Source: Candidatus Eiseniibacteriota bacterium (lineage in GTDB: Bacteria; Eisenbacteria; RBG-16-71-46; CAIMUX01; VGJL01). From it: a stretch of 64,000 bases of DNA. Of this stretch, positions 32,386 through 36,940 are shown one piece after another (positions within the stretch are counted from its first letter, which is position 1; the number at the start of each line of letters is the position of its first letter). The position numbers were made by a program, and so were the translations under genes. The DNA is taken from positions 76,425 to 140,424 of the forward strand of contig JBHGAY010000009.1 of NCBI GenBank assembly GCA_041946735.1, given 5' to 3'. The notes below the pieces were generated by a model, which was given only the letters and a program-made list of their open reading frames with translations, did no database searches and was not told the origin of the DNA.

Positions 32386-33246
32386 ATGGCCGAGGAGATG
32401 GACCGGCGGTCGCGGGCCCTCCCGCTCGACCGGCTCGGAGTTCCACAGGAGCGCTTGCGTGAAGGCCGGTCGCCGGTTCTGCTCGAGCCACGCGACCTGT
32501 TGATTCTGCCGCAGCCGGGCGGCCGCGCCGCCGCGCATGCGAGTGCGAGCGCAGGCGCGAGCGCAGGCGCAGGCGCGGGCGTGGGCGGCGCCGCGACGGA
32601 CCCCGGGCCGGGTCCCTATCCTACGGTCGTCTGCTTCCATGGGATGGCGATGCGCATCGAGCCGATGATTCGCTGGATGTCGGACCTCTTCGACACGCCC
32701 TGGGCATGGCTCTTTCTCGAGGCTCCGTATCCGGTCGAGCGCAAGATCGGAGGCGTCCGCACCATCGGCTACGCCTGGTACGCGTTCGACGGCGACACGC
32801 CGGCGTTTCGCGACAGCCTCCGGAGAAGCGAGGCGCGGGTGTTGAGCCTTCTGCCCGATCGCGCCTCCGCATGGAACCTGGACGTGACGCGGATGGTCGT
32901 GCTCGGCTTCAGCCAGGGGGCCTACTTCGCGGGCAGCGTCGGACTCCGCCATGCCGAGCGGTTCCGGGGCATCGTCTGCGCAGGCGGGCGCATCCGGCCG
33001 GCGTATTCCGGACGCTCCCCGGAAACCGTCCCGAAGCTGCCGATCCTCTTCCTTCACGGGCGCGACGACGCCACGATCCCGATCGAGGACGCAAGGTCGG
33101 CGGCCGAGGAGATGCGAGGGCTGGGCTTTCCTGTCGAGTGGCGGGACGTCGAAGGGCGGCATCGATGGAACCCGGCGATGTCGGAGGCTCTGCGACCTTG
33201 GCTGAGCGAGCGCTTCACCGAGGCAGATCCCCCTGGATCCCGATAA
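32386..33246 (+). CDS. Alpha/beta hydrolase (phospholipase/carboxylesterase family)
   Basis: FHG, GYAWY, GFSQG nucleophile motif, HGRDDATIP, GRH. Confidence 0.85.
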   Translation: MAEEMDRRSRALPLDRLGVPQERLREGRSPVLLEPRDLLILPQPGGRAAAHASASAGASAGAGAGVGGAATDPGPGPYPTVVCFHGMAMRIEPMIRWMSDLFDTPWAWLFLEAPYPVERKIGGVRTIGYAWYAFDGDTPAFRDSLRRSEARVLSLLPDRASAWNLDVTRMVVLGFSQGAYFAGSVGLRHAERFRGIVCAGGRIRPAYSGRSPETVPKLPILFLHGRDDATIPIEDARSAAEEMRGLGFPVEWRDVEGRHRWNPAMSEALRPWLSERFTEADPPGSR

Positions 33247-33249
33247 TTC

Positions 33250-33453
33250 CCAAGAAGAAACCCAGGGGCTCTTCGAATCTCCTCTCGGATCTTCGTCCCG
33301 GATGACCGTCTCCGGGAACCCCTGGGTTCCGGTTACCTGTCGAGATTCCGCAGACGACCTGGCTCAAGCCATACGACTGCGGCCAGGCCGCCTAGCGTTC
33401 AGGCACCTCACGGGTCTTGGATTTCATAGATTGGACCACCTCCTTTCTCGTGT
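33250..33453 (-). ncRNA. Candidate structured small RNA or micropeptide mRNA carrying an extended anti-16S-3'-end segment
   Basis: Own promoter, 5' AGAAAGGAGGUGGUCCAAUC, several stems whose G-U pairs work only on the minus strand, and a terminal stem followed by a U-rich tail. Confidence 0.6.
33392..33427 (-). CDS. Micro-ORF, 11 aa (MKSKTREVPER)
   Basis: ATG 10 nt after AAAGGAGGT; TAG at 33392-33394. Confidence 0.45.
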   Translation of the reverse strand: MKSKTREVPER

Positions 33454-33459
33454 ACCGCC

Positions 33460-33488
33460 AACATAGGATGAGACAACGAGCGCTGCAA
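33460..33488 (-). promoter_or_regulatory. sigma70-like promoter for the small RNA
   Basis: TTGCAG-17 bp-TATGTT; predicted start near 33453. Confidence 0.6.
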
Positions 33489-33516: not shown

Positions 33517-34026
33517 ATGCAGGAGGAAGAAACGTCGCCGTGCCGGCGAGAATCGCGAGCAGGACCGAAGCGGAGACGCCCGGCCGAGGCAGGCCCGACC
33601 GGGAGCGCCGGGACAGTGATCGTCTACGACGCATCCTGTCCGATCTGCCGAGCGACGGTCCGTGCGCTGCGTGGCCTCGACGCCGACCGCCTCTTCGAGT
33701 ACGCCGACGCCTCCGATCGAGACCGGCTTCGCCGCGACGTCCCACAGGTCGATCCCGGGCAAGCGATGGAGAAGATCCATGTCGTCCTTCCCGGCGGAGG
33801 CGTGCGCGCGGGATTCAGCGCCTTGCTGGCGATCGTTTCGGCGCTCCCCGGCTGCCGTCCGCTCGCTGTGGCCCTCGGCCTGCCGGGGATCCGCTGGATT
33901 GGAGAGAAGGCATACGCCGTGTTCGCGCGTCACAGACCGCGACGAGGAGGAGGACGAGAAGGAGGACGAGGAGATACGCATGCCGTGCGGGAAGGCGAGC
34001 CGCGCCCCGGTGGACGGGAAGGGTAG
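33517..34026 (+). CDS. DCC1-like thiol-disulfide oxidoreductase family (DUF393)
   Basis: VIVYDASCPICR and GEKAYAVFARHR. The true start may be further downstream. Confidence 0.8.
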   Translation: MQEEETSPCRRESRAGPKRRRPAEAGPTGSAGTVIVYDASCPICRATVRALRGLDADRLFEYADASDRDRLRRDVPQVDPGQAMEKIHVVLPGGGVRAGFSALLAIVSALPGCRPLAVALGLPGIRWIGEKAYAVFARHRPRRGGGREGGRGDTHAVREGEPRPGGREG

Positions 34027-34372: not shown

Positions 34373-36940
34373 TCACGCGCATCCCCGTGATGCGTCCCCA
34401 CCCGCACCGTCCGAAGGCGAAGCAGGGGGCTTCGCGCTCTCCGGGTCCGCGATCCTCTCTCCTTCCGGCTCGCGTTCCTCCGCGCTCGCCGAATCTCCGG
34501 GACCGGGGAAAAGGCCGAGCCGCTTCATCTTTCCGATCAGCGTCGTTCGGCTCAGTCCGCCCAGGGAGCGGGCGGCGCGCGTGCGGTTCCACTCGTTCTC
34601 CTCGAGCGCCTTGACGATCAGCCGGCGCTCGAGGTTCTCGAGGAACGGCTCGAGGCCTCCTGCGGCGCTCACGTCGTAGGGATCGAAAGCCTCTTCGGCA
34701 TCGATCGTCGCCGGCAGCCGTTCGAGGTCGATGCAGTCCGCCTCGATCCGGTCCCGTCCGAGAGCGAGGGTGAGAGCGAGCGCCTTCTCGACGACGAAAC
34801 GCAGCTCGCGCACGTTGCCCGGCCAGGCGTGCGCGAGAAGCCGGTCGAGCGCTTCGGGAGTCGGGGAGGGGCGGGGATCGTCCGGCCCGGCGAAGAGACG
34901 CACGAAGTGGTGCACGAGGAGTGGCACGTCCCCCATCCGGTCGCGTAGCGGGGGCAGGTCGATGCGAAGGCCGGAAAGGCGGTAGTAGAGGTCGCGCCGG
35001 AACTCGCCTCGGCGGATCTGTCCCTGCAAGTCGGCGTTCGTCGCCGCCAGCACGCGCGCGTGGATCTTGCGCGTCCGCGTCTCGCCGACGCGGCGCACCT
35101 CCCCCAGCTCCAGAACGCGCAGCAGCTTCACCTGCGCGCGCGGCGTCATCTCCCCGATCTCGTCGAGGAGCAGCGTGCCCCCGTCCGCCGCCTCGAAGAG
35201 GCCGACCTTGTCGGCGATCGCGCCGGTGAACGCGCCGCGGACGTGCCCGAACAGCTCGCTCTCCTGCAGCTCGGCGGGCAACGCCCCGCAATTGACGGCG
35301 ACGAACGGGCCGCGGCTCGCAGCCGCCCGGTGGAGGGCGCGAGCGAGAACCTCCTTGCCGGTTCCGCTCTCGCCGAGGATCAGCACGGGGATCGCCGTGC
35401 GTGCGAGCGACTCGATCGGCTCGAGCGCCCCGAGGATCCGCGGGTCGGCGGTGACGAACCCCAGCTGGGACACGCGCCGCGCGCGCGGCACGCGAGGTGG
35501 TCGCGCCGCAGCCGCGGCGGGCGCGGCGGCGGCCGCGCGCTCGCATTCCCGAAGTCCTTCGAGGGCGACGTCGCAGCGCCACGCGAAGCGGCTCTCCCCG
35601 AGCCGATGGAACAGCAGGCGGGCCTCGAGCAGAGACTCTTTCGCCCCCTCCCGCAGGTTCGGCTCCCAGCGGCGCACGAGGACCGCTTCGGCGCGCTCCA
35701 GCAAAGTCCCGGCCAGCTCTCGCGAGGCTTGGACGCTGCGGTGGAGATCTTCGGCCCATTGGAACTCCGCCCAGGCGCGTTCCTCCTCCCCATCCTGGAG
35801 AGCAAGACGGGCGGCGAGCCGCCGCAGGCCCGCCAGGGCGAATCGATAGGCGGCGCCGGCGAGCCGCGCTCCATCCACGCCGGCGGGCAGGACGTCGGAG
35901 AGGACCGCACGCGCCTCGGCCGGCATGCGGCGCTCGAGCAGGACCTCGGCGAGGAGGCTTGCCGCCTGCATCCCCGTCTCTTCGTCCCACGATCCCTTCT
36001 CGGCCATCGCCGCCCCACCGCCGCACACGGGGACGTCCGCCTGGACAGAGGCGGCGCTCGCTTCGCGGCAGGCGGCGCTCGCCTCGCAGCAGGCGGGGGC
36101 CGCTTCTCGGCAGACGGCGATCGTTTCGCGGCACGCGGACTCCGCCGCCTCCAACCGTCCGGAGAGAGACAGCAGGCGCGCGGCGGCGAGACGCGCGCGG
36201 GCGCGCAGCTCCGGGATCCTCTCGAGCGCCGGCTCGCCTTGCAGGCGGTCGAGCATGCGGCGCGCGGCGGGCAAGTCGCGGGCGTCAAGATAGACGTTCG
36301 CCGCGGTGAGACGCGCGCGCCCGCGCAGAGCCCAGTGGACCGGGGTCGACCTCGGTCCTCCCCCGCCTCGGAGCAGCCGCAAGGCGCGCGCCAGGTGGCG
36401 TACCGCGCGCGGCGGCTCTCCTGCCCCGGAGGCCGCCAGCGCCTCGCCGATCCGCAGCAGCGCCTCCTCCTCGCCGCCGCGGCGAGCGAGCGGCACGAGC
36501 GCCTCGAATGCCTCCCCCGCCGCCGTCCAGCAGCCGGCGGCGAGGAGCGAGCGGGCGAGGGCGAGCCCGGTCACGCGGAGCGAGGGTCGGTCCTCGTGCG
36601 CGAGCGCGAGCGCGTGCAGGCGGACGAGCTGGGAGCGGACGTCGCCGGCGCCATGCGGCGCCGCGGCGGTCGCCACCCGTTGCTCGAGCTCATCGGCCTG
36701 CCGCTCCAGATCGAGATCGGCGGCCGGCGACGCCCGCTCGACGGCGTCGGACGTTGCGACATCCTCGAAGAGCGAACCGCAAAGGATCGAAGCCGCGGCG
36801 AGTGTCGTCGCGTCGCGCTGGGGGACGAGCTCCGTGGGCCCCTCGAATGGCTCGGGCTGCGGAGCTGCGACAGGTTTCAGAGACACAAGAGACACGAGCG
36901 AAGCGAGCGAAACGGGGGACCTCTCCTGGATCACGGCCAC
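34373..36940 (-). CDS. sigma54-dependent activator: TPR-like N-terminus + AAA+ + Fis-type HTH
   Basis: [58 protein letters not shown]. Confidence 0.93.

Follow-up and report, generated by a model that had tools for sequence, protein, structure and literature searches.

What kind of gene is a unit of about 200 nucleotides (nt) that carries its own promoter and terminator, a long complement of the 16S ribosomal RNA (rRNA) tail near its 5' end, and an open reading frame (ORF) of 11 codons? Is its product an RNA, a peptide, or an engagement with the ribosome? The question is raised by a locus on the minus strand of a 64,000-nt stretch of DNA, here called the window, from a Candidatus Eiseniibacteriota bacterium (assembly GCA_041946735.1, contig JBHGAY010000009.1, positions 76,425 to 140,424). 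Every element of this unit, as described in an original prediction made from the letters alone, is present in the sequence, and the object is a real stand-alone small RNA gene, which confirms that observation. It is virtually certain to be a member of the Rfam family RF02471, Ms_IGR-5, which is catalogued but functionally unstudied; what is new here is an added member and not a new kind of RNA. The best overall explanation, with a probability of roughly 60%, is that the locus encodes a translated, ribosome-engaging Ms_IGR-5 RNA that refolds when it is read.

The whole RNA, as delimited by cmscan, is 202 nt long and occupies positions 33252..33453 of the minus strand, to which all parts of the unit belong. 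The sigma-70-type promoter (33460..33488) consists of a -35 element TTGCAG (33488-33483), a spacer of 17 nt and a -10 element TATGTT (33465-33460), and the predicted first base, A33453, is separated from the -10 element by six bases and coincides with position 1 of the Rfam model match. The 16S complement AGAAAGGAGGTGGTCCAATC was read in the sequence at 33448-33429. It holds an extended Shine-Dalgarno (SD) sequence, AGAAAGGAGGUGGUCCA (33432..33448), whose core AGAAAGGAGGU (= GAAAGGAGGU, 33448-33438) is displayed as an 11-nt bulge with helix P0 on one side and helix P1 on the other. In this 5' domain (33409..33452), P0 joins CACG (33452-33449) to CGUG (33412-33409), while P1 joins GGUC (33437-33434) to GACC (33416-33413) and holds the start codon in its loop. 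The micro-ORF (33392..33427) runs from ATG at 33427-33425 to the stop TAG at 33394-33392 and reads MKSKTREVPER over 11 codons. Within it lies the conserved GAGGUGCCUG (33400..33409), a second SD-like word with a mean unpaired probability of 0.22, of which GGUGCCUG (33407-33400) forms the 5' strand of a long-range helix, PL, found both by RNAalifold and in the minimum free energy (MFE) fold. The stretch 3' of the ORF comprises about 140 nt, is GC-rich, and closes with a stem and TTTCTTCTT (to 33252). It includes the P2 hairpin of variable length with the stop codon in its base (33349..33397, MFE fold), a conserved linker (33331..33348) composed of the single-stranded GGAAUCUCGA (33348-33340) followed by the 3' strand of PL, CAGGUAACC (33339-33331), and the branched terminator P3 (33252..33330), with an outer stem, two inner hairpins and a U-rich tail (33256-33252). 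A P3 loop, GACGGUCA (33310-33303), contains a GGUC that can pair with the GACC of the ORF.

The original prediction could not assign the unit to a known RNA family and named cmscan against Rfam as a check. That search returned RF02471 Ms_IGR-5 ("Actinobacteria sRNA"). The score of 54.5 bits (E 6.5e-11) exceeds the family's gathering score of 45, and the match spans model positions 1-184 of 184 without truncation; a known family at full length and above threshold removes, by the prediction's own criterion, the novelty of the object. It is the sole above-threshold Rfam match in the window, where other families gave only sub-threshold noise of microRNA type and CC2171 at 16.5 bits, and where no tRNA or tmRNA was found. 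A whole-genome search with the Rfam model found Ms_IGR-5 in single copy in the 4.9-Mb assembly. The Rfam consensus starts ACACAaGGAAGGAgGugGuCc, so that the long 16S complement characterizes the family as a whole. In the Rfam structure line the 3' part of the SD is paired with the end of the ORF, and three pairs of this first helix are flagged non-canonical in the window; the helix is not kept there, and P0, P1 and PL take its place in the present analysis.

The window gene is stand-alone, as is Ms_IGR-5 of Mycobacterium smegmatis (= ncMSMEG15794c, between MSMEG_5794 and MSMEG_5795), and the two share the order of their elements: an ACAC start, a long SD, a short ORF with GAGGUG(G/C)CUG, a variable hairpin, a GAAUCC...CAG..ACC linker and a terminator. 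PL reads GCCUG/CAGG in the window and GGCUG/CAG(U/C) in actinobacterial Ms_IGR-5, a compensatory swap, whereas the peptide ends EVPER in the former and EVAAR in the latter. The host, unlike the organisms that name the family, is not an actinobacterium. The M. smegmatis RNA was discovered by heterologous Hfq pull-down, with northern blots and 5' rapid amplification of cDNA ends, as summarized in a review (PMC4109619), and was re-detected as ncMSMEG15794c (PMC10454040). For M. abscessus and M. smegmatis, MS_IGR-5 is reported to show "significant ribosomal reads" (PMC4974804). In Streptomyces, the S. lividans member SLIV_16488 is reported as validated by RNA sequencing (PMC8079986), and the S. 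avermitilis member as a small RNA (sRNA) transcription unit with mapped start and end (PMC8780764). Nicotinamide adenine dinucleotide (NAD) captureSeq placed the M. smegmatis RNA at a +1A start and called it "validated but yet uncharacterized" (bioRxiv 10.1101/2021.12.14.472595), and the +1 A predicted in the window agrees with that start. Nearly all homologues have A as their predicted first base (ACAC.../ACGC...), and NAD capping could be general in the family. In those parts of the literature that the search covered, no description of the 16S complement, the conserved micro-ORF, the long-range helix or the function of Ms_IGR-5 was found.

How far the family extends was followed with the Rfam model, a sequence pattern and a second covariance model. 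With the Rfam model, homologues were detected in 12 of 41 relatives and, in a sample of 151 genomes drawn from the phylum, in 21; 14 control genomes, Corynebacterium glutamicum included, gave no match. A pattern scan of one genome per species (AAGGAGGTGRTY, a gap of 12-42 nt, then GAGGTGSCTG) returned at least 120 stretches, with 80 loci listed. These 80 named loci and 24 sequences from the host's own phylum make up the comparison set of 104 used below. Since the search pattern demanded both words, AAGGAGGTGRTY and GAGGTGSCTG are invariant by construction in the 80 named loci, whereas all other features could vary. Among the loci listed are Actinomycetota (Streptomyces, Micromonospora, Kitasatospora, Nocardioides, Mycobacterium, Mycolicibacterium, Rhodococcus, Acidimicrobiia), Acidobacteriota (Pyrinomonadaceae, Blastocatellia, Terriglobales, Polarisedimenticolia), Latescibacterota, Planctomycetota, a Candidatus Eisenbacteria metagenome-assembled genome (MAG), a Syntrophobacter MAG, Leptospira and a MAG labelled Heliobacteriaceae. 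On 18 non-actinobacterial loci the Rfam model reached E <= 0.01 in 10, with 3 above threshold.

The second model, R1, was built from 23 own-phylum sequences and matched all 99 loci given to it at full length with E <= 0.01, the actinobacterial and acidobacterial ones included. Its weakest scores were those of Leptospira (32.6 bits) and of two planctomycete loci (28.9 and 19.7 bits). The planctomycete loci L094 and L106 and the Leptospira locus L074 were seen to have the SD, a short ORF and GAGGUGGCUG, but the linker GAAUCC...CAG..ACC is missing from them in the form found in other members. They could represent either a divergent branch or a look-alike. In the host's phylum, R1 found the RNA in 91 of the 151 genomes (one of which, G052, is flagged unpublished) and in 71 of the 118 of good quality, with a single full-length copy in each; in one positive genome a further, partial match lies at the end of a contig. 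Consistent with a host outside the actinobacteria, the phylum sample covers only 17 families, and the 16S rRNA of the host's relatives begins ...CTCAGAAC. Sequences of one family of the phylum, f13, closely resemble the locus of the named Candidatus Eisenbacteria MAG, L115, in the segment from SD to stop. Judged by its sequence signature, the range of Ms_IGR-5 extends well beyond Actinobacteria, with conserved parts across at least five phyla.

Does the long complement really face the 16S tail of this organism? Its sole 16S gene in the assembly (G000:C36:1-811) is broken at a contig end and covers model positions 9-797 only, and the exact GGATCACCTCCTT has zero occurrences in the assembly. Because the gene is cut there, its own anti-SD sequence is unreadable, and four relatives with a complete 16S gene were taken for comparison. 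All four tails read ...GCGGCTGGATCACCTCCTTTCTA(A/G)GGAG. Against them the predicted 17 contiguous pairs, one of them G-U, were reproduced, while the 20-pair version proposed at the same time needs a GGUUGG variant that none of the four carries. A hint that the pairing reaches past the mature 16S end, and hence bears on pre-16S maturation, proved unneeded and was set aside, as UUUCU belongs to the relatives' rDNA tail. The mature 16S rRNA of many bacteria retains ...CCUCCUUUCU, so that no precursor-specific contact is implied.

Within the genome, the match to the 16S tail is extreme but not unique. At least 17 contiguous tail pairs are found at three sites in the 4.9 Mb, counting both strands, with the site of the RNA tying for second place, and its predicted duplex energy of -30.4 kcal/mol ranks 6 among 86,587 GAGG-containing sites. 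Long SD-like words are enriched genome-wide, with 41 one-mismatch matches to the 13-mer GGATCACCTCCTT vs 4 for a reversed control. A few other sites pair with the tail as well as the RNA does or better, for example C24:5883, C1:99396, C2:38500 and C2:43375. SD use here looks strong, yet the phylum is grouped with bacteria related to Bacteroidota, and Bacteroidetes are described as largely lacking SD sequences (PMC7797042).

Conservation is, on comparison of the sequences, the decisive evidence that the 16S complement exceeds chance. The docking site across homologues reads GAAAGGAGGUG(G/A)UCC. The word AAGGAGGTG is present in 24/24 own-phylum homologues found by the Rfam model, which does not force it, and is intact in eight of nine new R1 matches outside the model building; the ninth differs by one substitution inside the word, and in one of the eight a C follows the word directly. 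AAGGAGGTG is preceded by GA in 90/104, and directly after it stands G (85) or A (19), in most sequences ahead of TCC. The expectation that homologues would retain both the extended 16S complementarity and the micro-ORF was thus borne out across related genomes.

The ORF is conserved in its geometry. A frame starting 2-14 nt past AAGGAGGTG and stopping 8-12 nt past GAGGTG exists in 104/104 homologues, as against 20% when the segment between the two words is shuffled. It is 11-18 codons long, its stop lies exactly 9 nt past GAGGTG in 96/104, and the frame is open in every sequence although the SD-to-GAGGTG distance varies between 31 and 54 nt. The start codon is ATG (46), TTG (40), GTG (11) or CTG (7), and the stop codon TAG (86), TGA (10) or TAA (8). 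The spacing from SD to start is 5-10 nt in 92/104; in the window the ATG lies 9 nt after GGAGGUG. At four Acidimicrobiia loci (L055, L063, L068, L081) CTG is the only in-frame start at the conserved position, six bases past GGAGGUG, which suggests CTG initiation on a very strong SD. The family f13 (L181-L184) and L115 differ from f11 (L027-L036) by one base more before GGAGGUGGCUG and one fewer after it, a compensated frameshift inside a 15-codon ORF that leaves the frame open and the word read as GGGC instead of EVA. From the conserved start, frame and stop and the compensated indels, it is likely that the ORF is truly translated.

The peptide itself behaves otherwise. The conserved word is read as E-V-(A/P) in 97/104, as R-(W/C)-L in 4 (the own-phylum family f12 and planctomycetes) and as G-G-G-C in 3 (Latescibacterota and the named Eisenbacteria MAG); the same G-G-G-C was read in four f13 matches added later and inspected outside the 104. 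Among close relatives, residues 2-5 are hypervariable (MKSK, MIQA, MQRL, MKCL, MKQP, MKYT, MQDS). Purifying selection on the peptide, as looked for in dual-function sRNAs, did not appear, given these variable residues and a frame that differs relative to the conserved RNA word in 7/104. On alignment evidence, the start, length and stop position of the ORF are kept and the peptide sequence is not. Since the conserved codons coincide with covarying helices and the frame changes, the peptide would not be the point of the ORF.

What is kept beside the ORF is the fold. The window RNA has an MFE of -92.7 kcal/mol (z = -4.9), and 0/200 shuffles were as stable. The fold was projected onto alignments with weak 5' pairs swapped for P1. 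In 23 sequences aligned with MAFFT, 78.8% of cells were paired vs 34-48% with partners slid, and double-sided changes affected 39 pairs vs 15-31. In 99 sequences, whose pair counts are inflated because the alignment was fitted to the structure of the model, 86.3% of cells were paired vs 32-45%, with a covariation score of 0.398 vs at most 0.084 and 1048 double-sided changes vs at most 258. RNAalifold on the 23-sequence MAFFT alignment returned only PL and a trivial hairpin, the other helices being projected from the single-sequence fold. PL, found independently in this way, joins GGUG(G/C)CUG to the linker CAG(N)NACC; its pair at alignment columns 96/420 is G-U in 40, G-C in 32 and C-G in 17, a true G-C to C-G swap. 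On the 99 sequences, paired cells reach 87.9% for P0, 90.1% for P1, and 99.3% and 93.9% for PL.

In P0, the four or five bases that immediately precede the SD pair with those immediately preceding GAGGUG. At a single fixed register only about 75% of sequences were paired, and because the register shifts by one base between clades, P0 was re-tested with a free register and a cross-pairing control: own partners form at least 4 bp in 55 of 69 distinct combinations vs 39% of cross-pairings. The partners covary (CACG/CGUG, CGCG/CGCG, CACUG/CAGUG, CACC/GGUG, CGCA/UGCG, CCAA/UUGG, CCGA/UCGG). SD position 13 likewise covaries with its P1 partner (G-C 65, A-U 12, G-U 14). Farther downstream, the 99 sequences contain double-sided changes in all 20 modelled pairs of P2 (helices 5-7) and in all 23 pairs of P3, whose helices are 76-95% paired; the linker AAUCC...CAG(N)2-4ACC recurs across phyla with its GAAUC(C) stretch single-stranded. 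In P3, the first inner hairpin carries a loop (GGUC in the window, GUCC in actinobacteria) that complements the 3' strand of P1, and the flanking bases of this loop-to-ORF pairing covary (GGACU/AGUCC, GGACG/CGUCC, GGACA/UGUCC, GGAUGA/UCAUCC). A complement of at least 5 bp exists in 50/98 sequences, as against a mean of 26.9 (max 37) with permuted loops and 12.3 (max 18) with shuffled loops. The SD core has a mean predicted unpaired probability of 0.49 vs 0.34 for the whole RNA and is more open than the RNA in 75/98 sequences.

How might such an RNA work? A 30S subunit would dock on the bulged 15-17-nt complement of the 16S tail, and initiation would follow at the AUG. Once P1 opens, the 16S tail could extend its duplex into GGUCC while the P3 loop would take over the other strand of P1. 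The ribosome would read about 12 codons, melting P1, P0 and PL in turn, and halt at the foot of P2. The melting of PL would briefly free the linker, whose UAACC (UCACC in most relatives) is anti-SD-like, and at termination GAGGUG would sit 6 nt upstream of the codon in the peptidyl (P) site, which is a working SD spacing. Selection would then act on the act of translation and the resulting refolding, not on the peptide, and ribosome loading would probably also shield the 5' end of the RNA. Possible outputs are 5' protection, the sensing of free ribosomes, or a release of the linker to act as a regulator. Translation-gated refolding as the working principle is put forward tentatively, as one that may well prove otherwise.

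Several points weigh against the explanation of a translated RNA that refolds when read. The geometry of these steps follows from the sequence, while their occurrence and effect, and with them the refolding mechanism and any output, are inferred. Transcripts and ribosome reads come only from other members, outside the phylum of the window, and in the study that reports the reads, tRNAs and further classical non-coding RNAs carry footprints as well, and coding is called hard to judge (PMC4974804). The 16S pairing rests on the tails of relatives, the host's own 16S 3' end being unassembled. The invariance of the SD word and of GAGGTGSCTG in the 80 pattern-found loci is not evidence; only the 24 Rfam-model and nine R1 matches bear on it, and two of the nine carry a substitution in or beside the SD. 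The better-paired alignment owes part of its counts to having been fitted to the model, and the loop-to-ORF pairing in the window is just 4 bp. Furthermore, the 3' part of the SD, GGUCC (0.20 unpaired), and GAGGUG (0.22) are mostly base-paired in the predicted ensembles, so that the full 17-bp duplex with 16S rRNA needs prior unfolding.

The other explanations meet the same evidence less well. The view that the site belongs to an unannotated small gene as a strong but otherwise ordinary ribosome-binding site, or arose by chance without special function, could be argued from the several other long SD-like sites of the genome (41 vs 4 in the reversed control), five of them with a better duplex energy; it is scarcely credible beside an above-threshold Rfam match, a promoter, fold, linker and terminator conserved across at least five phyla, and a presence in 91/151 genomes of the phylum. 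A decoy of the 16S 3' end, sequestering 30S subunits or pairing with pre-16S rRNA to affect its 3' maturation without productive translation, would account for 15-17 contiguous tail pairs, far above a normal SD, for the SD displayed in a bulge, and for a widespread single-copy gene that fits a housekeeping role. It would make the conserved start, open frame and stop superfluous, and these favour productive translation over dead-end sequestration. A single gene copy would also have to equal the ribosome pool in amount, UUUCU within the relatives' rDNA tail gives no precursor-specific contact, and SD position 13, which covaries with its internal partner, is G in 85/104 and not the perfectly complementary A. 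The decoy is accordingly a long shot.

Should the product be the 11-residue peptide (...TREVPER here, ...RTREVAAR in actinobacteria), with the structure only tuning its synthesis, one would point to E-V-(A/P) in 97/104, to a C-terminal half similar within phyla and to synonymous changes such as CGC/CGT before the stop. The conserved codons, however, match the P0 and PL strands exactly, and because these are strands whose partners covary, RNA pairing explains the codon conservation. In seven of 104 sequences, which include two own-phylum families, Latescibacterota and Planctomycetota, the word gives GGGC or R(W/C)L; residues 2-5 vary freely even between close relatives; and the peptide strings were not found in the microbiological literature searched. 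The variable peptide argues against a micropeptide as the product, which is considered very unlikely. A classical non-coding, trans-acting sRNA, in which the ORF is incidental and the SD-like word or the linker serves as a seed, agrees with the Hfq pull-down by which the M. smegmatis RNA was discovered, as the review describes it (PMC4109619), with the strong structure and covariation, with a single-stranded GAAUC(C) linker conserved across phyla, and with a stand-alone gene among variable neighbours. It leaves aside an ORF with a proper start and fixed stop in 104/104 vs 20% when shuffled, a stop position that varies only among the three stop codons, indels compensated so that the frame stays open, and the SD-start spacing of a working initiation site (5-10 nt in 92/104). 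Moreover, a seed that matches targets would not be expected to be identical across phyla without common targets. Such an sRNA is judged quite unlikely, and the translated, refolding RNA is retained as the preferred reading.

This preferred reading resembles several known systems without coinciding with any. STAB-SD elements of Bacillus mRNAs, of the cry3A type, are not followed by a start codon and serve a long downstream mRNA. The likeness lies in a word of the GAAAGGAGG type that stands a few bases inside the 5' end and pairs extensively with the 16S tail, where a bound ribosome could block decay that depends on the 5' end; the difference, by the usual definition of STAB-SD, is that the window family has a start 2-14 nt after the SD in 104/104 and no downstream cistron. 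Dual-function sRNAs such as SR1/SR1P, RNAIII/hld and SgrS/SgrT encode conserved functional peptides in a separate part of the RNA. The window RNA, for which translation is predicted, is like them stand-alone and structured, with its own promoter and terminator, but the peptide of its family is not conserved across lineages and the ORF is interwoven with conserved helices. Leader-peptide attenuators and regulatory upstream ORFs share a very short ORF whose translation would remodel helices before a terminator. They differ in that the ORFs of the window family have no run of a single regulatory codon, the next gene in the window is convergent, the relatives show 47 co-oriented vs 32 opposed downstream genes, and no neighbour family is shared.

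The gene context agrees with a unit of its own. TAnnnT occurs at the matching distance in 90/104 homologues, and TTG 16-19 nt upstream as well in 85/104, as against 0-1/104 in shifted control windows. At the level of sequence the window thus has a conserved promoter position and a branched stem with a U-tail, and expression has been shown in other members only. A search for sequencing runs of this organism listed none of RNA and a single one of DNA type, which contained 0.26 of the words. The RNA is flanked on each side by a plus-strand gene, neither of which it runs antisense to: downstream of it is the convergent gene of an Abhydrolase_2 protein (32386-33246), and on the other flank that of a DCC1-like thiol-disulfide oxidoreductase (33517-34026). 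Beyond the latter follows, on the minus strand, a large sigma-54-dependent activator (34376-36940; Sigma54_activat, AAA_lid_14, HTH_8) with a long N-terminal region without Pfam assignment. The 47 and 32 downstream genes mentioned above are the ORFs picked among relatives (n=79). A conserved neighbourhood was sought at 40 named loci and rejected, the commonest families being GCV_T (6), THAP4_heme-bd (5) and Citrate_synt (4), each only in related actinobacteria. Because of the absence of shared neighbours and the mixed downstream orientation, the locus is taken as a stand-alone gene and not as a leader. Neighbours of redox or repair type were seen at several loci of different phyla, namely MsrA, MsrB, DCC1-like, nitrobindin-like THAP4_heme-bd and YgfZ-like GCV_T (L045, L048, window 33517-34026, L047, L051, L076, L079, L082). 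As a theme this is too thin, has no conserved synteny and may be coincidence.

A broader account, which is considered unlikely, would see in Ms_IGR-5 not an actinobacterial sRNA but an ancient single-copy RNA that contacts the ribosome directly and is common to Actinomycetota, Acidobacteriota, Eisenbacteria, Latescibacterota and probably more phyla. Such an RNA would load one ribosome, allow it to translate about 12 codons and retain it at the stop by means of the second SD, 6 nt from the P-site codon, while the freed anti-SD look-alike would close the first SD; it would be a parking or counting device that reports or buffers free ribosomes. If this account is true, the sequence-conserved parts, that is, the bulged complement, the second SD paired with UCACC and the GAAUCC linker, would have been kept because their partner is the ribosome. 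The interest of the family lies in its wide range of phyla, its single copy, its frequency in the host's phylum and its invariant features pointing at the ribosome. Since members of the family exist in cultivable bacteria, M. smegmatis and Streptomyces among them, engagement of the RNA by the ribosome would be directly testable there.

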